64,000 nucleotides of DNA from an uncultured bacterium (GTDB taxonomy: Bacteria > Babelota > Babeliae > Babelales > Vermiphilaceae). Of the stretch, positions 1,195 through 60,872 are shown in pieces (position 1 is the first letter of the stretch; each line of letters begins with the position of its first letter). Location of the stretch: assembly GCA_963713925.1 (NCBI GenBank), contig OY970212.1, positions 352,001 to 416,000 on the forward strand, given 5' to 3'. The translations under genes and the position numbers were made by a program. Under the pieces are notes generated by a model. It was not told the DNA's origin, ran no database searches, and saw only the letters and a program-made list of their open reading frames with translations.

Positions 1195-1866
1195 GTGAAA
1201 AAATCTCTACTATTACTTTCGTTGTTTATGTTTTCAGTGCGAGCAGATGCTGATCTTGATCGTTATTTGAGATCAACGTCCAGCAGAGCGACGCTCGAAT
1301 CTCCGGTGCTTGCGTTGATCGATGGATTGGCAATGGGTATTGATGGTCAGAAAATCGGTTTTATGTTGCGAGTCAGAAGAGATTTGCAAAAAATACAAGG
1401 TGTGCGATCGCATGAAGATCATTCGATTTCTCACGAAGGAATTTTTGAGTTTGATGGAAAGCTTTATTCTATTCATGGGCTTGCAACTATGGAACATCTT
1501 GCTTTAGAAAATCATGATTCAGAAATGGTCGCAAGACTTCATACTATTCTTGGTGATGCGCGCAGCTATTTCTTGGCAAAAGTGAAACAGTTCATGTCGG
1601 TTGCTCGCGGTTCAAAACGTCAGATGTTGTTACTTATTGAAGAATGGTGTGCAAAGAATAAGCGAGCAAAAAGTATTTTGCTTCGCTGGGGCGGGACAAA
1701 AGACGGCGATGAAGATCGTCAATTCCATGCGGATGCAACTTCATTTATACACTTTGATGAATTTTGCACTGATCTGATATTCTTTATAGAAGATTTGATT
1801 CGCAGCTGTCCGAAGGCATTTGCACAATTTAAGCAAATGATTGAGAAGCAACAAGAAAATAAGTGA
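1195..1866 (+). CDS. Secreted hypothetical protein
   Basis: GTG start after GAGGA; signal-peptide-like N-terminus. Confidence 0.7.
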   Translation: MKKSLLLLSLFMFSVRADADLDRYLRSTSSRATLESPVLALIDGLAMGIDGQKIGFMLRVRRDLQKIQGVRSHEDHSISHEGIFEFDGKLYSIHGLATMEHLALENHDSEMVARLHTILGDARSYFLAKVKQFMSVARGSKRQMLLLIEEWCAKNKRAKSILLRWGGTKDGDEDRQFHADATSFIHFDEFCTDLIFFIEDLIRSCPKAFAQFKQMIEKQQENK

Positions 1867-1920
1867 AGCTCGCGCGGCCTAAAGGCCGTGGCTTTCTTAT
1901 TTAATAAAATAGTCTCAAAT

Positions 1921-2307
1921 CGTTCGTGGTGAGCGTAGTGCAACGAAGTCGAACCATACGAACAAGAAAATAGATATGCAAAATTTTTATGTATATATTC
2001 TTCAATGCAGTGATAACTCATATTACACTGGCCATACCGATAATATCGAGCTACGAATTCAAGAACATCAAAGCGGTCGGTATCAAGGTTATACCGCGAC
2101 ACGCCTGCCGGTACAACTAGTTTTAGTTGAAACAATGGCTTCTCGTGCGGATGCTTTGGAAGCAGAAATGCAAATTAAGAAATGGTCACGCAAGAAAAAA
2201 GAGATTCTTATTAAATATGGATGGCAGGGAATGAAAAGCTTTGCAAAACAATACAAGTAAGAAAGTTCGTATGGTTCGACTTCGTTGCACTACGCTCACC
2301 ACGAACG
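1921..2307. mobile_element. Putative GIY-YIG element bounded by perfect 43-bp inverted repeats (family A)
   Basis: 1921-1963 is the exact reverse complement of 2265-2307; only the nuclease ORF lies between. Confidence 0.7.
1976..2260 (+). CDS. GIY-YIG nuclease (small YhbQ/UPF0213-like)
   Basis: YVYILQC..YYTGHT..R..HQ.G..YT..R.PV.LV..E..AL..E.QIKKW motif pattern. Confidence 0.92.
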   Translation: MQNFYVYILQCSDNSYYTGHTDNIELRIQEHQSGRYQGYTATRLPVQLVLVETMASRADALEAEMQIKKWSRKKKEILIKYGWQGMKSFAKQYK

Positions 2308-2340: not shown

Positions 2341-4515
2341 ATGAATGAATTACAATTGAGTGGTACTGTTGAGCGACATCTTTTTCAAAACTCTGAAAAC
2401 GGTTACGCAGTTTCTGTGATAAGTGTTTCTGATCGACAAACCATTGTTGTCAAAGGTCACATGGCGCATGTGCAACCAGGTGAACAAGTACTGGTCACTG
2501 GCGCATGGGTGCAGCATCCCAAATTTGGCAAGCAGTTTGAGGCTGCAACATGTGTCACGCAAGTTCCCACAAGCCTTGTGGGGCTCAAAAAATATTTGGG
2601 CTCAGGTCTCATTAAGGGAATTGGTCCATCATACGCACAACGATTAATTGATGCATTCGGTTCACAAGTGCTCGAAGTCATAGATAAGCATCCGGAAAAA
2701 TTGACGCTTGTTGAAGGAATTGGTCAAAAGCGAGCGCAAGAGATTACCACTGCTTGGCAATCGCAAAAAGATATCGCTTCCATTATGGTCTTTTTACAAG
2801 AGAAGGGCGTTTCCCCTGCGTATGCGGTTAAGATTTATAAAAAATATGGACAAGCTTCTATTGCGATGGTGCAAGAAAATCCGTATCGCTTGGCGGAGGA
2901 TATTTGGGGAATAGGTTTTAAGCTTGCAGATCAAATTGCGCAAGCGATTGGTATTGCTTCCGATTCATTAAAACGGGTGATGGCTGCTTATTTGCATCAA
3001 TTATCAGTAGAAGCCTCAAGCGGGCATTTATATTCGTTCATTGAGCCTCTCAAACAAAAGACGGCACAATTGCTCGAGTTTGATCTGCAAGAACAAGCGC
3101 AGAAGCTCAAGAATGCGTTACATCAATTGCATGATGAAGGTAAGATTAAACTGATCAGCAGTGGTGATGAACATTACATTGGGTTGGCGTTACATTATTT
3201 TACCGAAAAAAATGTTGCCGATCGTATCAAACTTCTTTTAAGCCAGTCTCCTACCGTCAGCTACGATACGAACGTGATATACAACAAACTGCGCGCTCCA
3301 GATGCGAACAAAAAAATTCATCTCAATGAAGATCAACAGCATGGCATTGTCACGGCATTATCGCATCAAATATCGATCATCACGGGCGGACCGGGGACCG
3401 GTAAAACGACATTAATTAAAGAGTTGCTTGATATTATTGATGAACACAGGGCTGTGTACCGGCTTGCTGCTCCCACCGGACGCGCAGCAAAACGAATCAC
3501 TGAGGGCACGCAGCGCAATGCGGCGACAATACATCGATTGCTCGAGTTTGATTTTTTAACGCATCGATTTTTGAAAAATGAACAAAATGCGCTCAAGGTT
3601 GATTTTCTTATCATCGATGAATCATCAATGCTTGACGTGTTTCTCATGCATAGTGTACTGAAGGCAATTCCGTTTGGTGCGCGTGTTGTTTTTATCGGTG
3701 ACATTGATCAGCTCCCGTCAGTCGGGGCCGGCAATGTGTTGCATGATATGATTGTCAGCGGCGTTGTGCCGACGGTGCGTCTCAAAACAATATTCCGACA
3801 AGCCCAAGACAGTATGATTGTAGTCAACGCTCACCGCGTAAATAGCGGTCAATTCCCGCTCGGCTATCAAGAAGGTGCGCGCAGAGATTTTATTTTCATC
3901 AAAGAAGAGAACCCCGAACAAGCGATGACACACATTCGGGAGCTTCTGCTCAAGCGGCTTGGCCTTCATGGCATGCGTGCCGAGGATGCAACGATCTTGG
4001 TGCCTATGAACAAAACAATTGTCGGCGCACAAACGATGAATGCACAGCTGCAGGAGTTACTCAATCATAATCAAGAACGTGTGGAACATCATGGCACGAC
4101 CTTTAAAATGGGTGATCGAGTCATGCAGATTCGCAACAATTACGATAAAATCGTGTTTAATGGCGATGTTGGCATCATAGAAGAAATAACGTCTGAAAAA
4201 AAGTTGCGCGTGAATTATTCCGATCGGATCGTTGAATACGAATTCAATGAGCTCGATGAGTTAACGCTCGCCTATGCAATGACGATTCATAAAAGCCAGG
4301 GATCGGAATATCCGGCGGTGATCATTCCGATTTTTATGCAACATTTTACTCTTTTGCAACGAAATTTGGTGTACACTGCAATTACGCGCGCTAAGCGTTT
4401 GTGTGTTCTGATCGGGCAAACGAAGGCAATTGCGATGGCCATTAACAATGACAAAGGAACGGTTCGATTAACATTGCTGAAACAATTTTTAACTTCGGAT
4501 CTTGCGTGTCGATGA
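2341..4515 (+). CDS. recD2: ATP-dependent RecD-like DNA helicase RecD2
   Basis: HPKFGKQF, HhH repeats (IKGIG, VEGIG), Walker A GGPGTGKT, TIHKSQGSE, YTAITRA; start moved to ATG 2341. Confidence 0.93.
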   Translation: MNELQLSGTVERHLFQNSENGYAVSVISVSDRQTIVVKGHMAHVQPGEQVLVTGAWVQHPKFGKQFEAATCVTQVPTSLVGLKKYLGSGLIKGIGPSYAQRLIDAFGSQVLEVIDKHPEKLTLVEGIGQKRAQEITTAWQSQKDIASIMVFLQEKGVSPAYAVKIYKKYGQASIAMVQENPYRLAEDIWGIGFKLADQIAQAIGIASDSLKRVMAAYLHQLSVEASSGHLYSFIEPLKQKTAQLLEFDLQEQAQKLKNALHQLHDEGKIKLISSGDEHYIGLALHYFTEKNVADRIKLLLSQSPTVSYDTNVIYNKLRAPDANKKIHLNEDQQHGIVTALSHQISIITGGPGTGKTTLIKELLDIIDEHRAVYRLAAPTGRAAKRITEGTQRNAATIHRLLEFDFLTHRFLKNEQNALKVDFLIIDESSMLDVFLMHSVLKAIPFGARVVFIGDIDQLPSVGAGNVLHDMIVSGVVPTVRLKTIFRQAQDSMIVVNAHRVNSGQFPLGYQEGARRDFIFIKEENPEQAMTHIRELLLKRLGLHGMRAEDATILVPMNKTIVGAQTMNAQLQELLNHNQERVEHHGTTFKMGDRVMQIRNNYDKIVFNGDVGIIEEITSEKKLRVNYSDRIVEYEFNELDELTLAYAMTIHKSQGSEYPAVIIPIFMQHFTLLQRNLVYTAITRAKRLCVLIGQTKAIAMAINNDKGTVRLTLLKQFLTSDLACR

Positions 4516-4555: not shown

Positions 4556-4746
4556 CGTTCGTGGCGAGCAGAACGGGTTCCCGATCGTAGCGTAAGTGTA
4601 GATTGGGGTTAAAACGTAGTGCAGTCGAACCATACGAACAAAAAAATAAATGTGCATGTATATAGCGGGAAATGAAAAATTTTGTAAAAAAGATACAAAA
4701 AAAGTTCGTATGGTTCGACTCCGTTGCACTCCGCTCACCACGAACG
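4556..4746. mobile_element. Non-autonomous internally deleted derivative of the family A element
   Basis: Inverted repeats 4556-4639 (with 41-bp insert) and 4704-4746; 64-bp interior resembles both ends of the GIY-YIG interior. Confidence 0.7.
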
Positions 4747-4812
4747 GTTGGAAACTAGTTTATTAGGATTTTCAAAAATTCAACGGACTCTAAATATCGA
4801 GAATGTATAATT

Positions 4813-11514: not shown

Positions 11515-12258
11515 ATGGCGCAGCAACCTCGTGTTGACGGAGAAATTGTGTATGGGATCAATCCCATCGTTGAACTTTTGCAGGCGAAGCGACGCAAGCT
11601 TATTAGTCTGTATACGACAAAGCCAACTCCGAAATCATGGTCAAAAATTGAACAGTTAATTTCGGGGCGCTCAGTGCAAGTCAAATTTGTCTCAAAAGAT
11701 CAGCTCGCTTCCTTGGCAGGCACAACAGATCATCAAGGGGTTGTCGGTATTGCCCAAAAGATGACATTCCGTTCAAAACCTTTTACTCCTGAGACTGCGC
11801 CACTATTGGTGCTTCTTGATGGGATTCAAGATCCTCGCAATATCGGAGCTATTTTACGCTCGGTCTATTGCTCCGGGTTTTCGGGCGTCATTATTCCTCA
11901 AAAAAACAGTGCTCCGCTCAATGCAGTCGCGCTCAAATCTTCAGCCGGGCTGGCCGAGCATCTGCAGATTTATACACCGGCAAGTTCAGCTGTTGCTGTG
12001 CAAGAGTTAAAAAAAGCGGGATATCAGATCTATTTGGCTGCTTTTAACGGCGAAAATGCGGCAACACTCGAATATAAAAAACCATTATGCTTAGTCATCG
12101 GCAGCGAAGGGTCGGGCATCGACCAATCACTATTAAAAGCAGGCACGCAGGTGACGCTTCCCCAAGTGAATGCGCAAGTCTCTTACAATGCCTCCGTTGC
12201 GGCCGGTATTTTGCTCTTCTTGATTGCAATGCAACAGAGGTCTATTGCTATCCCCTGA
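11515..12258 (+). CDS. rlmB: 23S rRNA 2'-O-methyltransferase RlmB (TrmH/SpoU family)
   Basis: YGINP, HQGVV, LDGIQDPRNIGAILRS, IGSEG, SYNASVA; start moved to ATG 11515. Confidence 0.9.
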   Translation: MAQQPRVDGEIVYGINPIVELLQAKRRKLISLYTTKPTPKSWSKIEQLISGRSVQVKFVSKDQLASLAGTTDHQGVVGIAQKMTFRSKPFTPETAPLLVLLDGIQDPRNIGAILRSVYCSGFSGVIIPQKNSAPLNAVALKSSAGLAEHLQIYTPASSAVAVQELKKAGYQIYLAAFNGENAATLEYKKPLCLVIGSEGSGIDQSLLKAGTQVTLPQVNAQVSYNASVAAGILLFLIAMQQRSIAIP

Positions 12259-15140: not shown

Positions 15141-15545
15141 ATTTTGCGCCTTGTCTATTGTTCCGGGTTTTCGGGCGCCATTATCCCTCAAAAAAACAGC
15201 GCTCGGCTCAACGCAGTCGCACTCAAATCTTCAGCCGGACTGGCCGAGCATCTGCAGATATATACACCGGCGAGTTCAGCCGTTGCTGTGCAAGAGTTAA
15301 AAAAAGCGGGATATCAGATCTATTTGGCAGCTTTTAATGGCGAAAATGCGGCAACCATCGAATACCGAAAACCATTATGCTTAGTCATCGGCAGCGAAGG
15401 GTCGGGCATCGATCAATCATTATTAAAAGCAGGGACACAGGTGACGCTTCCGCAAGTGAATACGCAGGTCTCTTATAACGCTTCCGTTGCGGCCGGTATT
15501 TTGCTTTTCTTGATTGCAATGCAACAGAAGTCTATCGGTAGTTGA
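15141..15545 (+). pseudogene. rlmB: Duplicated 3' half of rlmB
   Basis: Aligns to 11851-12250 at offset 3290; lacks N-terminal domain and DPRN motif. Confidence 0.85.
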
Positions 15546-17443: not shown

Positions 17444-20400
17444 ATGAAGCATTTAATACTTCGATATGTGTTATCTTCACTATTAGTCGTATGTGGATTT
17501 ACGCATGCTCAAGACGAGCAAGAAAATTTTGAAAAAATGAAATCATCTTCTGAATCGCAATCTTCGGAGCCTTTAACCGAAGAAATAGATCAACAGGCCC
17601 CGGAATCTCTCATTGATTGTCTCAATACTTTGCACGCATGTTTGCTTGCGTGTGTTGAACTTGATTATCAACCCGAATCGCTTGAGCAAATTGTGCAATG
17701 GCTGAATGATGAAAATCATGATGAAATTACGCTTGCTGAGCTCGTTGAATTACTTGTTGAAGAACTTGAGGCGACCACACTCGATGATGATCCAATTGCG
17801 GAACTTGCAAAAAAGTACATTCCTCAATTGGAACAAAATGTCGATATGTTGCGTAGTCGCTCTCTTTCTTGCGGAGACCAGAATGCGCATGAAATCGATT
17901 TAGGTGTGAGTCGTCGCGCACGCATGGGTGCAGCATTGCGCTCAAGCACATTTGTCAGACCGACATCATTGACGACAAATGGCAATCTCTATATGGTCCA
18001 TTCAAACACAGCTTCTAACGTTGGCTTTATATATAAAAATAACGTTGTCTTTATGAATGACCTGGGCACCAACAGTGTTGGGCTTGGAGCTGCCGCGGGT
18101 GAGGATATAACGACAGCTTCAGATTGCACCGCAATTGGCGCAAATGCGCTATCGCTCAACACAACAGGCAGCGACAACACCGCCGTTGGATACAATACAC
18201 TTGCGCTCTGCGTAGCCGGGGGCACAAACGTTGCCGTTGGATCGCAAGCTCTTTCAAAAACAACGGCAAGCAGTACAACTGCTGTTGGATATCAGGCAGG
18301 AACAAATCTTACCACAGGAACACAAAACACTATGCTCGGATATCAAGCGCTCATGTCGGCTACCGGTGCTACCGACAACACTGCGCTCGGATACCAAACA
18401 ATGGTCAATTCGACCGGCGGAGGAAGCAATGTCGCCGTTGGATCATTCTCATTACAAAATTACACTAGCAATTTTACGGTAGCCGTTGGACACCAAGCAG
18501 GACAAGCACTCATTTCAGGAAATGAAAACACCGTGATCGGTTATCAGGCAATGGTCAATAGTGCAGCGGGCGCGGGAAATGTTGTTGTCGGCTATCAAGC
18601 AATGAAGAATGGTGGATCGAGCAACAATGTCGCCGTCGGAGCACAGTCATTGGAAAGTTGTACCGCAGGAAATACAACTGCTGTCGGATTTTTGGCGGGA
18701 CAGCAACTTACGTCAGGATCTCAAAACACCATGCTTGGTTATGACGCATTATCCTCAAGTTTAACAGACTCCTCAAATGTCGCTGTCGGGTATGAAGCGA
18801 TGACGAATGCAATCGGCGGCTCAAACAATGTCGCTGTCGGTGTAAGCGCGTTAAGTAACATCACTGTGGGCAATACTACGGCCGTCGGATATCAAGCGGG
18901 AACTGCACTTACATCAGGAAACCAAAATACGGCAGTCGGATATCAAGCTCTTTCTTCTGCAACGACATCTTCACAAAATACTGCAGTCGGATCACAAGCG
19001 ATGGGTAACTCGACAGGAGGAAGCCAATGTGTCGCGGTTGGTCAGAATGCTTTAATTAACAATGCCTCAGGGGGAGACTTCAACGTTGCCGTCGGAGCAA
19101 ACACGCTTTCAAGTAATACTTCAGGCAATGTCAACATTGCTATTGGGGTAAATGCTTTGGACAGTAACATAGCCGGAAGCGCAAACCTTATGATAGGTGA
19201 TAATGCTGGAGCATCCTTAATTGGCGGTGGTAATAATATCGGCATTGGTCGCTTTTCTCTCAATAGTAGTGCAACTGGTTCTACTAACGTTGCAATAGGC
19301 GAAGACGCTTTGCGGGCATATATGGGAAGCTCGAGTGTCGCAATTGGCTATCAAGCAGGACAAACACTTATAACGGGATCTCAAAACACTATACTTGGCT
19401 TTCAGGCAATGCTCTCAAGCGTGACTGGTGCGTTTAATACCGCTATCGGCTATCAAGCGATGGAATCCGCAACAATAGGTCAAAACAATGTTGCTGTTGG
19501 AGATGTAGCAATGATCGCAGCCTCCGGAAATAATAATATAGCTGTGGGAGCTAGCACGCTCGTGAGTGCTACCGGAAGTGATAATATAGGTGTGGGCTTT
19601 CAAGCACTGGAGAATGTTTCTGGAAATCAAAATATCGCTATCGGTTCATCGGCCGCCGCGGGCCTTTCCACCGGAACAAAAAACACGTGTGTAGGCTACC
19701 AAGCCCTCGGATCGGCAGTTGTAAGTAACTTCTCTCAAAATACAGCCGTTGGATGGGAATCCATGTCGAATCTCACCAACGGGTCACGAAACTGCGGCTT
19801 CGGGGATCAATCGTTGCAAAATACAACCGGGACACAAAATTGCGCTTTTGGTTCTCTTTCGGGGGAAAATCTATCTTCAGGAAGCAGTAATATTTTTATC
19901 GGAGCAGGCGCAGGACAAAATATTACTACCACTTCAAATAATATTGACATAGGAAATAATGGGACTTTAGGCGATTCCGGCATCATTAGAATTGGAACAT
20001 CAGGAACCGGAGCGGGACAACAAAATCAATGCTTTATTGCGGGAATCAGCGGATCAACTTCTTCGGGCGGTGTGGCCGTGCTCGTCAATGCAAGCGGACA
20101 ACTTGGAACAACCACTTCCTCGTTACGATATAAAGAAAACATTGCCGATATTACCAATGCGACTGAAAAAATGGCTGCTTTGCATCCCGTGCAATTTAAT
20201 TATAAAGTCGATCCGATAAAACATCTTGAATTCGGACTTATTGCCGAAGAAGTTGCACCGGTCATTCCAAATATTGTTGTCTATAATGATCAAGGGCAGA
20301 TCGAAACCGTGCAATATCACCAGCTTCCAGCACTCATCATCAAAGCATGGCAGGAGCTACAAGCGGTCGTCCAATCGCAACAAGCAGCAATCGCGACACT

Positions 20401-34180: not shown

Positions 34181-34238
34181 GCAGGAATTCATGATATCTT
34201 ATACTTAAGTTCCATAGATTCTGTTGAGTTTTTGAAAA

Positions 34239-34345
34239 GTTCGTATGGTTCGACTTCGTTTCACTTTTGCCCAAGCTTATACCCCACACTTACGTGCGGG
34301 GGCCCCGAATTCGCATGGGGCCCGAAACTCCGCTCACTACGAATG
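34239..34345. repeat. Solo family A repeat containing two nested family B hairpins
   Basis: Removing 64 bp between ACT copies restores a 43-bp family A unit. Confidence 0.75.
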
Positions 34346-34460
34346 GCTAAAGCAAAAAATCAATTAAGCATCAATGAATGAATTTTCTCATGATTTCAAA
34401 AATTCAACGAACCCTAGATTTTGCATTCTTCCAAGATTGTGCCCTGTAGAGGATTTTTTA

Positions 34461-53554: not shown

Positions 53555-53731
53555 AATAAGGGCCCCAAAAAGTAGCGCGAGCGAAATTTTGGGTAAGAAT
53601 AAGGGGTTCCCAAAAAGTAGCGCGAGCGAAATTTTGGGTAAGAATAAGGGGTTCCCAAAAAGTAGCGCAAGCGAAGTTTTGGGTAAAAATAAGGGCCCCA
53701 AACGCAATAAACATGAAGTTTGGGTATTATA
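53555..53731 (+). repeat. Tandem array of four family B hairpins (period about 45 bp)
   Basis: GGGTA at 53591, 53636, 53681 and 53722; first three units nearly identical. Confidence 0.85.
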
Positions 53732-57463: not shown

Positions 57464-58279
57464 ATGACGATACATTCAATCAAACACGGCTTTTATGCCG
57501 GTATTCGAGCATTTAGATTATTATTAGGCAACTCGCATACGCGCACGGTCTTTTCAATTGGGTTATTGGTGCTTTCTGCGGCATTTTCATTTCCAGTCAT
57601 GATGTTGATCACAAAATTTTCTGCTCTGACTATAACTTTCAATCTCACTTCGGGCAGCATCATTTGGATGATATTAAAATCGATTTTCGCCATGATCACC
57701 TTTGTAGTATTTTCGCTTCTGTGGAGTATTTTGATTGTTGAATCAGTGCTGCATCCCGAATTGAGCATTCGAAAACTGTTTTCAACAAGCTTACCAGTAG
57801 TTTTGTCAGGCTTAGGGTATGCGGCTGTAAAAGCAGTTGCCATGCTGATTTTAGCTCCGCTGTATGCCATTTCATTTGGTCTGTTTCCGGTGATCCATTT
57901 TTTTGTCAATTACCTGACTTCGTTCTTTTTCGTGCAGGTAGTTGACGAGCGCACTCTTTTTATCGATACCAAAAAATATGAGCAATTGATCAAGCACAAC
58001 CTCGCCGATTATTTTGGCGTGTGGTTATTCAGCTTCATTGTGGGAACAGTTATTGTATTTATCGCAAGTCTTGTGGGATTGTCTCTTGCGGGAGTCATAC
58101 TCGAATATCAATTTTCTTTCTTGGCTTTGTTGACCAATTCGCTTTTTCTTTTTGTTGCGGCATTTAGTTTTCTTTTCACATTCCTTGTCGCGTCGACCGT
58201 TGATTTGGTAGGAGTTTGCTTGTTGTATAAAGATGAAAAAGATGAGAAGCCTCAATTAGAGCAGAATTACACGAAATAA
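57464..58279 (+). CDS. Multi-TM membrane protein, paralog 1
   Basis: About 6 TMs; HSIKHGF N-terminal motif. Confidence 0.7.
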   Translation: MTIHSIKHGFYAGIRAFRLLLGNSHTRTVFSIGLLVLSAAFSFPVMMLITKFSALTITFNLTSGSIIWMILKSIFAMITFVVFSLLWSILIVESVLHPELSIRKLFSTSLPVVLSGLGYAAVKAVAMLILAPLYAISFGLFPVIHFFVNYLTSFFFVQVVDERTLFIDTKKYEQLIKHNLADYFGVWLFSFIVGTVIVFIASLVGLSLAGVILEYQFSFLALLTNSLFLFVAAFSFLFTFLVASTVDLVGVCLLYKDEKDEKPQLEQNYTK

Positions 58280-58294
58280 ATCAAAGGGTTCATA

Positions 58295-59131
58295 ATGGCA
58301 AATTCAATCGGTAATGGCTTTAGAGTTAGCTTTCGATCATTAAAAGAGATTGTAAAGAGCTCAACATTTTATTGGATGGTCGGCATTTTTTTTCTGTTGT
58401 CTGTGGTAGCGATTCTTTTGACAAAAGAGATTGGATTCCATTTTCCTTCAATTGTTGAGGCTATAAGAAACTCAAATTCTTATTTTGAAGTAATTGAAAG
58501 TTTTAAAATGCTATCTTTTTTTAAAAATAGTGAAAATTTAAAAAATACGGCGGTCCTAATGCCATCAGTTCTTTTAATCGGTGTTATGGCTTCATTTTTG
58601 TCGCTGATATATTCTCGGATTCTCATTAATAAAGCACACGGCAAAAAGGGAATACCTACGGATGATATTATAAAGTTTCTCTTTTTTGCAATTCCGGTGA
58701 GTTTGGTTGTGGGAGGACTGAATGCATTGATCGGATTGATAGATCTTTCATCGATTGGGTTAGCAATCGGTAGCAGCATACTGCGGTTTGTCCTTCGATT
58801 CATTGTATCGATTTTATCATCATTTTATTTGGTGTTTGTTGCTGCCGAACATCGTCTTTTTATTTCGTGGAAATTATTTTTTACTACCATTTCAACCAAC
58901 ATATTGAATTATGTCGGTTTTAGATTATTTGTTATTGTGGCAGTGACTTTATATACAGTCATCTTATCTTTAATAGGCATCAGAATATTCTTGGGCTTGA
59001 ATTTGCATAACTCTCCAAATGCAGTTTTATATGCGGGAATAGGCGTTTCATTTTTAATCGCACCGTTGAGCTTTTTCGTAGCGCATGTTTTAACCCGCTT
59101 CTATCTTGAATCAAATAAATATAGAGGCTAA
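58295..59131 (+). CDS. Multi-TM membrane protein, paralog 2
   Basis: MANSIGNGF; clearly similar to the next gene. Confidence 0.75.
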   Translation: MANSIGNGFRVSFRSLKEIVKSSTFYWMVGIFFLLSVVAILLTKEIGFHFPSIVEAIRNSNSYFEVIESFKMLSFFKNSENLKNTAVLMPSVLLIGVMASFLSLIYSRILINKAHGKKGIPTDDIIKFLFFAIPVSLVVGGLNALIGLIDLSSIGLAIGSSILRFVLRFIVSILSSFYLVFVAAEHRLFISWKLFFTTISTNILNYVGFRLFVIVAVTLYTVILSLIGIRIFLGLNLHNSPNAVLYAGIGVSFLIAPLSFFVAHVLTRFYLESNKYRG

Positions 59132-59166
59132 TTTCGTGATTAATTTAATCAGTAAAGGAGTTTTTT

Positions 59167-59976
59167 GTGGCAAATTCAATTGGCAATGGCTTTCGAGTTA
59201 GCTTTCGATCATTAAAAGAAACGATAAAAAGTTCGACATTTTATCAGTTAAGTGCCATTTTCATATTTTTGTCTTTAGTAGCTCTTTTTTTATCAAAAGG
59301 TCTGGTACCGCTTTTCCCTTCAATTTCAGAATTTATAACCTCAATCTCATATTTTCAAAGAATTGAAAATCCAAGCAGGTTTGTCTACCTTTTTCCAGCG
59401 CTATTTTTGATTGTTTTTATAACGACATTTTTATCATTGGTCTATTCACGTATCCTTATTAATAATGCACAAGGTAAAAAAGGGATAGATGCTAAAGATA
59501 TTATTCGGTTTATTTTCTTGGCAATTCCGGTAGTGCTCATTGTAGGGGGCGCCCCAGTTTTGATCGGGATGATTACTGCTCCGATTGTTGGTTCAGCGGC
59601 TGGCGGTAGAATAATAGAAATGATCCTTAAATCTACCGTAACAATTTTATCATCGTTTTATGAGGTATACGTTGCAGCCGAGCGTCGTCTGTTTGCCTCA
59701 TGGAAATCATTTTTTGTTACTGTTTCTAATAACATATTAAACTATATTGGTTTTTCTCTGTTTGCTGTTGTGGCGATATTTTTTATAGAACTAATTTTGA
59801 TCTTATTAGCAGCCGGAATATTTTTGGGATTAAATTTGCATAATTCTCCAAATGCAATTCTATATGCAGTAATAGGTATCATTTTTTTAATTGCGCCGTG
59901 GGTTTTTTTTGGAATTCACGTGTTGACTCGCTTTTATCTTGATTCAAACAATTATCGTGGTGAATCTCGTGGTTAA
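59167..59976 (+). CDS. Multi-TM membrane protein, paralog 3
   Basis: GTG start after AAGGAG; MANSIGNGF. Confidence 0.75.
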   Translation: MANSIGNGFRVSFRSLKETIKSSTFYQLSAIFIFLSLVALFLSKGLVPLFPSISEFITSISYFQRIENPSRFVYLFPALFLIVFITTFLSLVYSRILINNAQGKKGIDAKDIIRFIFLAIPVVLIVGGAPVLIGMITAPIVGSAAGGRIIEMILKSTVTILSSFYEVYVAAERRLFASWKSFFVTVSNNILNYIGFSLFAVVAIFFIELILILLAAGIFLGLNLHNSPNAILYAVIGIIFLIAPWVFFGIHVLTRFYLDSNNYRGESRG

Positions 59977-60775
59977 TTCAATAGGTAACGGAATCAAGAT
60001 TGCTTTTGAGGCGATCAAGCTTGTTTTCACGCGCTGGTACACTTATCTTATTGCAGTTCTTTACGCTGCGGCAGCATATATTCTTGCCGAGCTTATGATT
60101 TACATTGAAAAATATTACCGAATGCAACAGCATCCACATTTATTTCAAGGAATTGAGGGCTTTGGCTTTGATACATATTTCGATGTTTTCGCATCTATTT
60201 TCAAAAGAGGTTTGTGGATAGGGAGTATTAAAGTTTTGATGGTACCAGCTCTGATATTTTTTATTGATGCAATCATGAGTCAATATCGTCGGGAGCCGAT
60301 TTCGTGGAGCTCTTTGATATTAAAAATTTTTAAATATAGCATGTATTCAATACCGATAATGATACTATGGACAGCCGCATCACTATTAATTTTTGACGTG
60401 CTTGGTGATACTATTTTTTTTAAGCTTCTGCCAATATTGGTAGCGACTTTTCTTGGTTTTTACGTTGCCGCAGCGATTGATTCTAAGAAAATTTTTGTGC
60501 CTGTATCAGAATATCTGCATATCTTGAAATCTAATTTTTTTAATTATTGTGGATTTCTTTTAATTTGGTTGCCCTTTGATAGATTTCTTTCCTTTGCTGA
60601 AATGAGGATAATGGATTTTCTTATCAAGAACGAATTAATAGTTAGTTTTTTTGGGCTATCAAGATTTTTGTTTTTATTTATTAGTTTCAGCACATCATTT
60701 TTTATCCTGTGTGCGGCAATAACGCTCATGTATCTATGCACACCGAAAGAATCTCATGATCAATTCAATCGGTAA
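59969..60775 (+). CDS. Multi-TM membrane protein, paralog 4
   Basis: GTG start giving MVNSIGNGI. Confidence 0.7.
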   Translation: MVNSIGNGIKIAFEAIKLVFTRWYTYLIAVLYAAAAYILAELMIYIEKYYRMQQHPHLFQGIEGFGFDTYFDVFASIFKRGLWIGSIKVLMVPALIFFIDAIMSQYRREPISWSSLILKIFKYSMYSIPIMILWTAASLLIFDVLGDTIFFKLLPILVATFLGFYVAAAIDSKKIFVPVSEYLHILKSNFFNYCGFLLIWLPFDRFLSFAEMRIMDFLIKNELIVSFFGLSRFLFLFISFSTSFFILCAAITLMYLCTPKESHDQFNR

Positions 60776-60830: not shown

Positions 60831-60872
60831 GTTCGTATGGTTCGACTTCGCTATGCTTCGCTCACCACGAAC
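60831..60872. repeat. Solo family A repeat
   Basis: GTTCGTATGGTTCGACTTCG...CGCTCACCACGAAC matches 2265-2306 apart from the loop. Confidence 0.85.

Follow-up and report, generated by a model that had tools for sequence, protein, structure and literature searches.

A GIY-YIG nuclease gene between inverted hairpin repeats in a Babelota genome: a second nuclease-hairpin pairing of the Ssn type

The 64,000-nucleotide stretch analysed here (the window) belongs to the genome of an uncultured bacterium (G000; 1.32 Mb in a single contig, 95.75% complete) and carries, between a conserved host gene and recD2, a compact cassette of one GIY-YIG nuclease gene and two hairpin repeats (Table 1). As described in the original prediction, the two repeats are exact reverse complements (43/43 positions), and their match stops at 43 bp on both sides. 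The predicted gene between them was likewise found, starting 12 bp past the left repeat and ending 4 bp ahead of the right one. Its product gives a clear Pfam GIY-YIG match (E 1.5e-17) and an AlphaFold model with a pLDDT of 90.9, and no NCBIfam model matches it. For the 223-aa host gene no Pfam match was obtained. A promoter scan gave a signal no higher than chance. Next to the left repeat lies a short outer flank, termed 'A', which elsewhere joins the repeat to an IS5-type end; at the cassette locus no such end scored above threshold.

Table 1. Features of the cassette, its surroundings and related elements of the same genome (window positions unless marked G000).
Feature	Position	Strand	Remarks
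Conserved 223-aa host gene, left border of the insertion site	1195..1866	+	directly 5' of recD2 in relatives
Outer flank 'A'	1903..1920	+	common to the second gene copy and deletion derivatives
Left hairpin repeat, CGTTCG-tagged, TGAG...TCGAA core	1921..1963	+	directed into the gene; from sequence and stem covariation
94-aa GIY-YIG nuclease gene, one domain	1976..2260	+	Y7, Y17, G19, R27, H31 and E64 intact
Right hairpin repeat	2265..2307	-	perfect reverse complement of the left repeat
recD2 helicase, host gene, right border of the insertion site	2341..4515	+	
Gene-deleted derivative	4557..4745	+	repeat, gene reduced to its first bases plus the final ~50, inverted repeat
Flank 'A' plus IS5-type terminal repeat	4746..4792	-	bounds the derivative on its outer side
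MITE, both ends of IS5 type	34213..34419	.	one long repeat copy inside
Single repeat copy	60831..60872	-	
Common-junction derivatives	4557; G000 1111.4, 1113.3, 1253.0 and 1274.8 kb		the 1111.4-kb one has a single arm
IS200-type remnant (L116)	G000:735700-736000		Y1 transposase fragment of about 30 aa, preceded by a hairpin

The repeat is abundant throughout the genome, where 84 complete copies were counted (95 left and 96 right arms), compared to 3–6 left and 0–1 right arms in three mononucleotide shuffles. This includes the four further window copies announced in the original prediction (at 4556, 4704, 34239 and 60831), two of which, at 4556 and 34239, are longer because a second hairpin is nested in the loop. 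In general, the arms are constant, and the loop ranges from a few bases up to nested hairpins. Of the copies, 24 stand alone, and the others form 18 head-to-head and 12 tail-to-tail pairs; by a crude test 82 of the 84 lie outside long open reading frames. Other small hairpins, of the GGGCCCCATGC...GCATGGG and GGGGTCCCCGAT types, occur at about 40 sites genome-wide (in the window at 4570-4612 and 34266-34330), where they either nest in the repeat loop or stand alone. No Rfam family was detected at the repeat, neither in the window, where an E-value scan returned one chance-level hit, nor in 20 homolog loci.

The view of each repeat as an imperfect hairpin stood in part: a single repeat folds as drawn, but the fold is weak (-5.6 kcal/mol, z -0.62), and 49 of 200 shuffles fold as well. 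The case for a hairpin comes from compensatory changes across genomes and not from folding energy. When 264 distinct repeats, taken from 91 loci, were compared, five pairs of columns showed Watson-Crick pairing in 209–243 of the 264 sequences, with changes on both sides of the stem, compared to maxima of 144–209 in shuffles that ignore relatedness; slid-pair controls were also high for two of the stem columns (204/264 and 202/264). The implied stem contains tandem G-A mismatches and a bulged T. Such mismatched pairs can be stable in DNA.

The Ssn family, described in 2025 (Chenal et al., PMC11893778), already consists of GIY-YIG genes enclosed by cognate hairpins. There, SsnA of Neisseria meningitidis (cd10448) binds its hairpin as single-stranded DNA only, cuts upstream of it and needs Y6, Y17 and E64. 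The system described here resembles Ssn in its one-domain gene of about 94 aa (PF01541 alone), its inverted, dispersed and directional hairpins, their copies throughout the genome and its catalytic positions, the six residues of Table 1 being conserved in the clade and aligned with those mutated in SsnA. Moreover, the C-terminal half of the protein, including a W motif, is Ssn-like, and the best tree places this clade together with Ssn, at an unsupported 39/97. A divergent Ssn family member with a variant SRM (the published Ssn hairpin) is nevertheless very unlikely. Using 15 SRM-flanked Ssn proteins as stand-ins for N. meningitidis SsnA, none matched below E 1e-10 (13 gave matches at 3e-9 to 8e-5; the N. 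gonorrhoeae frame, E 1.7e-5), and the same 15 queries all reached E < 1e-10 with another gene of this genome. The CGTTCG tag and TGAG...TCGAA core do not fit the SRM pattern, which was found in 0/84 of the genome's own repeats and at 0/99 clade loci, compared to 25/43 Ssn-like loci. In a tree of 47 rows (subsampled from 110, no outgroup), the 16 Ssn rows form a branch of their own that excludes this clade (98/100).

The protein scores nearer to the UPF0213/YhbQ/YazA proteins, for which cd10456 is presumably the label. Its closest solved structures by sequence are the UPF0213 proteins 1zg2 (E 6.7e-17) and 1ywl (E 6.5e-13), and UPF0213 structures also take ranks 1–2 of a Foldseek search, with Slx1 next. 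YazA scores 76.6 bits, compared to 37–50 bits for Ssn, and substitute profiles gave 93.8 bits (UPF0213 set) and 55.6 bits (Ssn set), with the same preference in 99/99 clade proteins; the N-terminal motif YIL.C.D.SYYTG.T is shared as well. A grouping with YhbQ/YazA obtained an AU p of 0.546 on 93 columns, and the clade may equally be sister to Ssn. However, an ordinary YhbQ/YazA-like repair nuclease next to which the repeats lie by chance is hardly credible. YhbQ and YazA reside among host genes without the repeat, and UPF0213-like genes, which coexist with clade genes within the same genomes, have the repeat core GYTCRYNNYGAG nearby in 1/11 cases of a first comparison set and 0/16 of a second sample, whereas the clade gene is patchy (13/41 genomes of its own order), non-syntenic, repeat-flanked and equipped with the Ssn-like W motif. 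Since the protein departs from Ssn in similarity, hairpin and clade and scores nearer to UPF0213/YhbQ, we regard gene and repeat as a second nuclease-hairpin pairing.

This pairing extends far beyond the present genome. A scan of GTDB genomes confirmed at least 344 relatives, and the 80 loci that it yielded come from Pseudomonadota, Chloroflexota, Thermodesulfobacteriota, Nitrospirota, Babeliales and others, and a clade profile search gave 130 clusters at 50% identity (E up to 1e-30). The homologs' flanks behave as proposed: among 97 unique clade loci, from which three broken genes (L109, L177 and L178) and nine duplicate loci had been dropped beforehand, 90 have the core GYTCRYNNYGAG no more than 250 bp away on one or both sides. 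It is present on both sides in 67 and points inward on both in 60. Control windows 1 kb away had it in 0/56 upstream and 1/56 downstream cases. Because the motif was drawn up after the flanks of the first 80 loci had been viewed, counts on these are partly circular, and the flank test was therefore repeated on a second sample (251 genomes, evenly drawn in another order, with 30 loci taken from matches in 96 genomes). Here, the core was found at 10/10 intact clade genes, one of them that of the centre genome, and on both sides in 6/10. At least 11 repeat matches occurred in 9/10 genomes with a clade gene, compared to 23/241 others. The core was found at 0/43 Ssn-like genes.

Within the own order (this genome and 40 relatives, whose kinship makes them non-independent), 13/13 gene-bearing genomes contain at least four repeats. 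Of those without the gene, 18/28 are repeat-free and 10/28 carry repeats, with up to 68 matches; the gene is thus rarely without repeats, but the converse does not hold. Repeat sequence and protein phylogeny also co-vary as anticipated (Mantel rho 0.40, reached in 0/2000 permutations), again among kin that are not independent. Altogether, these comparisons support that the repeat family is tied to one nuclease clade across phyla. By eye, neighbouring GIY-YIG subclades (L255, L256 and L257) have a TGAG...CGAA core with other tags, and L257 lies inside a 905-codon open frame.

Several observations concern the movement of the cassette. recD2 is present in all 40 relatives, all of them from other genera, and 29 of these loci were compared. 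The nuclease gene is found in 0/29, so that empty sites expected 5' of recD2 do exist: in 28/29 loci the 223-aa gene lies directly upstream, with a gap of 24 bp or less in 22, compared to 474 bp here. One relative has a gene-less pair of the same repeat at this site. The orthologs are not syntenic, as a neighbour gene is common to only one pair among 20 own-order loci. The genome further contains a second intact gene copy (G000:141650), which is 81% identical, with a dN/dS of 0.25 between the two copies indicating purifying selection, and five gene-deleted derivatives which are 75–96% alike and have one common deletion junction, besides at least two other gene deletions. Two of the derivatives (G000:1111192-1111500 and 1113220-1113481) lie 2 kb apart around a 544-aa open reading frame and have identical outer flanks, which suggests a local duplication. 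Judged from empty sites, second copy and shared-junction derivatives, the cassette is mobile.

Further traces concern the repeats themselves. In the two intact copies flank 'A' precedes the gene, whereas in those derivatives that have it, it lies 3' of the gene remnant, which points to inversion at the repeats. While only 2/666 pairs among 42-nt repeat copies are identical, and six other neighbour pairs of equal length differ at 7–11 positions, the arms at the cassette locus are identical, which suggests that one arm has recently been the template for the other. The only contig joint across the gene (1976 to 2258), from a sequencing run which may represent the source sample, was considered as a sign of excision; it matches a short derivative at G000:315960-316109 and hence provides no evidence of excision at this locus. 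In other bacteria, in-frame fusions join the clade gene to host genes, at the 5' end of the latter, and the repeat seems to be translated as the linker. The partner is a SpoU-type RNA methyltransferase at six Sphingomonad loci (L029, L035, L042, L043, L067 and L078), and once each an FGGY kinase (L019) and a GFA protein (L027). The domains were assigned by Pfam for three of the six SpoU loci and for the FGGY and GFA loci.

Such findings could also be expected of an autonomous transposon, the strongest version of the original prediction, in which the GIY-YIG protein is the sole mobiliser, the repeats are the ends and the gene-deleted forms its MITEs. The IS-like layout, a different site in nearly every genome, the five derivatives with one junction and the fusions via a repeat-derived linker are in line with this option. 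We consider it quite unlikely, as the original statement that no target-site duplication is obvious held for the repeat ends of 8/8 cassettes (by eye) and as the derivatives adjoin IS5 ends. Furthermore, the repeat ends are no sharp boundary, since outer flanks of 20–70 bp are common to and mixed among copies. GIY-YIG domains hydrolyse DNA, and to our knowledge no strand-transfer step has been described for them, which argues against this option as well.

The IS5 ends deserve special attention as a confounder, as many repeat copies reside in MITEs with such ends, so that a DDE transposase may account for some of the spread. The original prediction had overlooked this. The motif TAGGTTCCGTTGAGTTTTTGA, scored at the 99th percentile of random windows, points inward at 29/53 repeat groups (18 left, 20 right, 9 on both sides). 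A relative (G020) contains an intact 863-bp IS5 element (NF033580, 261 bits) of which this motif is the terminal repeat, and in another relative (G012) IS5-type ends lie 865 bp apart. The outer terminal repeats of about 20 bp, with TA at the edge, match the relatives' intact IS5, and in three relatives MITEs with such ends enclose this repeat or SRM-like hairpin pairs. The within-genome spread is thus not creditable to the nuclease alone, and part of it, derivatives included, may have occurred by IS5 transposition. On the other hand, an IS5-type end (at most one mismatch) lies within about 400 bp at only 1/97 clade loci, counted with a pattern that does not pick up the degenerate end beside the second own copy, so that an IS5 route leaves the cross-phylum linkage unexplained. 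IS5-end MITEs (in the window 34213-34419 and 4746-4792; elsewhere L239, L241, L243 and L244) house hairpins of different GIY-YIG systems.

Taken further, this leads to the alternative that the nuclease cuts at the hairpin without spreading it, with a role in ssDNA restriction or hairpin processing, and that repeats and cassette are cargo of other elements, in this genome of IS5-derived MITEs. Apart from the inward IS5 ends and the relatives' MITEs, this reading can draw on SsnA, whose demonstrated role is the restriction of transforming DNA and not mobility (PMC11893778). It is still unlikely, as most of the clade loci have repeats in spite of the rarity of IS5 ends there, and as the inversion of the interior and the identical arms are not accounted for by MITE transposition. 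Moreover, this genome contains no trace of an IS5 transposase, and no match to the DDE transposase domains PF01609, PF13586, PF13358 and PF00665.

Other mobilisers were considered and rejected. For Y1/IS200, the genome gave a single match, the remnant listed in Table 1, which lies 9.3 kb from the nearest repeat; a repeat-flanked RAYT/IS200 transposase, which would have spoken against the nuclease as partner, is absent from this genome. The cassette does not represent a DDE insertion sequence either, as the enclosed gene encodes a GIY-YIG protein and the repeat ends are without target duplication. IS110 was discarded because its three identical copies adjoin an Ssn-type hairpin and not the cassette repeat.

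The linkage of gene and repeat, the conservation of the hairpin, the intact active site, purifying selection, changing position and deletion derivatives are all observed. In our preferred reading, to which we assign a probability of about 0.55, the cassette is a mobile unit whose nuclease acts on single-stranded DNA, where it binds its own hairpin and makes a cut a few bases to the 5' side, with substrate, strand and cut site taken over from Ssn. In the system described here the cut would fall just 5' of the CGTTCG tag, on hairpins bared during replication or DNA uptake, and the inward-pointing repeats would then lead to one cut per strand, at the outer ends of the cassette. Host recombination or template switching at other repeat copies could mend these cuts and thereby copy, invert and homogenise repeat-bounded segments, occasionally including the gene. 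Some repeat units of this genome would have spread further as cargo of IS5-derived MITEs. By analogy, the nuclease thus likely helps the repeat unit to spread. Slx1-type nucleases are among its nearest structures, so that the enzyme could be selective for structure rather than sequence.

The original prediction of a REP/REPIN-like system with a GIY-YIG enzyme is borne out with regard to the cross-phylum link of repeat and nuclease clade, the empty sites and the lack of synteny. Its concept, however, was already published: Chenal et al. (PMC11893778) present such nuclease genes, enclosed by cognate hairpins, and themselves liken them to IS elements and to RAYT/REP. The present locus is therefore a second nuclease-hairpin pairing of the Ssn type, which is real, widespread and mobile, and not a new principle. 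What sets it apart from Ssn is the separate clade, the different hairpin and the signs of movement obtained by comparison, namely empty sites, a second copy and deletion derivatives, whereas mobility of Ssn cassettes is, in that text, hypothesised only (PMC11893778). As in RAYT/REP and REPIN systems, the hairpins are mostly intergenic, stand singly or as doublets and flank a cognate gene; in RAYT/REP, however, this gene encodes an HUH tyrosine transposase, which is not the case here. CGTC-tagged REPs, which are described with stems of 8–9 bp, loops of 4–5 nt and no dedicated transposase (Di Nocera et al., 2013, PMC3733652), have another tag and, judged from their description in the text, differ from the bulged core found here, although a related repeat may be among them. 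With IS5-family MITEs the system shares the outer terminal repeats; these are, however, an overlay in this lineage, as the gene-repeat unit is without them in 96/97 loci.

Within the text and supplements of PMC11893778 that were searched, neither UPF0213 nor cd10456 occurs, and the main text of a preprint naming SsnA repeats (10.64898/2026.09.22.753630) does not mention GIY-YIG. A literature search, covering mainly sources other than subscription journals, found no paper on this clade and its repeat. The locus supplies a second pair with a defined, covarying target and with footprints of movement, i.e., empty sites, second copy, derivatives, inversion and identical arms, which makes it directly testable whether a GIY-YIG nuclease drives the spread of REPs. 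Such a pair is of special interest, as CGTC-type REPs are reported to have no mobiliser of their own (PMC3733652). Should the enzyme recognise a particular sequence on ssDNA, its specificity would furthermore differ from those of the published Ssn enzymes.

Three candidate GIY-YIG-hairpin pairs are found side by side in this genome. More tentatively, clades of tiny GIY-YIG nucleases outside Ssn, each with its own tagged hairpin, might form a class of transposase-free selfish elements, in which a cut followed by host repair copies the unit. If this were the case, such enzymes would be the missing drivers behind a large part of the REP families that lack a RAYT, and ssDNA cutters with sequence specificity would have a second source.

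The other GIY-YIG genes of this genome include an Ssn-like one (at 104371, within G000:104204-104820, L114), which matches the N. gonorrhoeae SsnA frame at 51%. It lies amid copies of a GTCATCCTGAA...TTCAGGATC hairpin, 27 of which occur in the genome and which do not match the published SRM pattern. An 80-aa GIY-YIG gene, presumably SLX1-like, lies on the minus strand right behind a tRNA-like sequence (G000:1102670-1102920, L111) and is flanked by a third repeat family, CTTCGC...GCTACGCCTGGCACAGCC, with 6 strict matches; by eye, a similar layout is seen in relatives (L101, L103 and L104). The IS110 copies (G000:678587, 1122024 and 1276337; L275-L277) are about 1.25 kb long, have identical scores and each start directly after an Ssn-type hairpin doublet. 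Elsewhere in the window, we noted a 300-bp duplication at 91% (11851-12150 and 15141-15440), a repetitive protein gene (18173-19407), a 45-bp tandem repeat (53564-53698) and an array of paralogs of about 833–872 bp (58275-59992).
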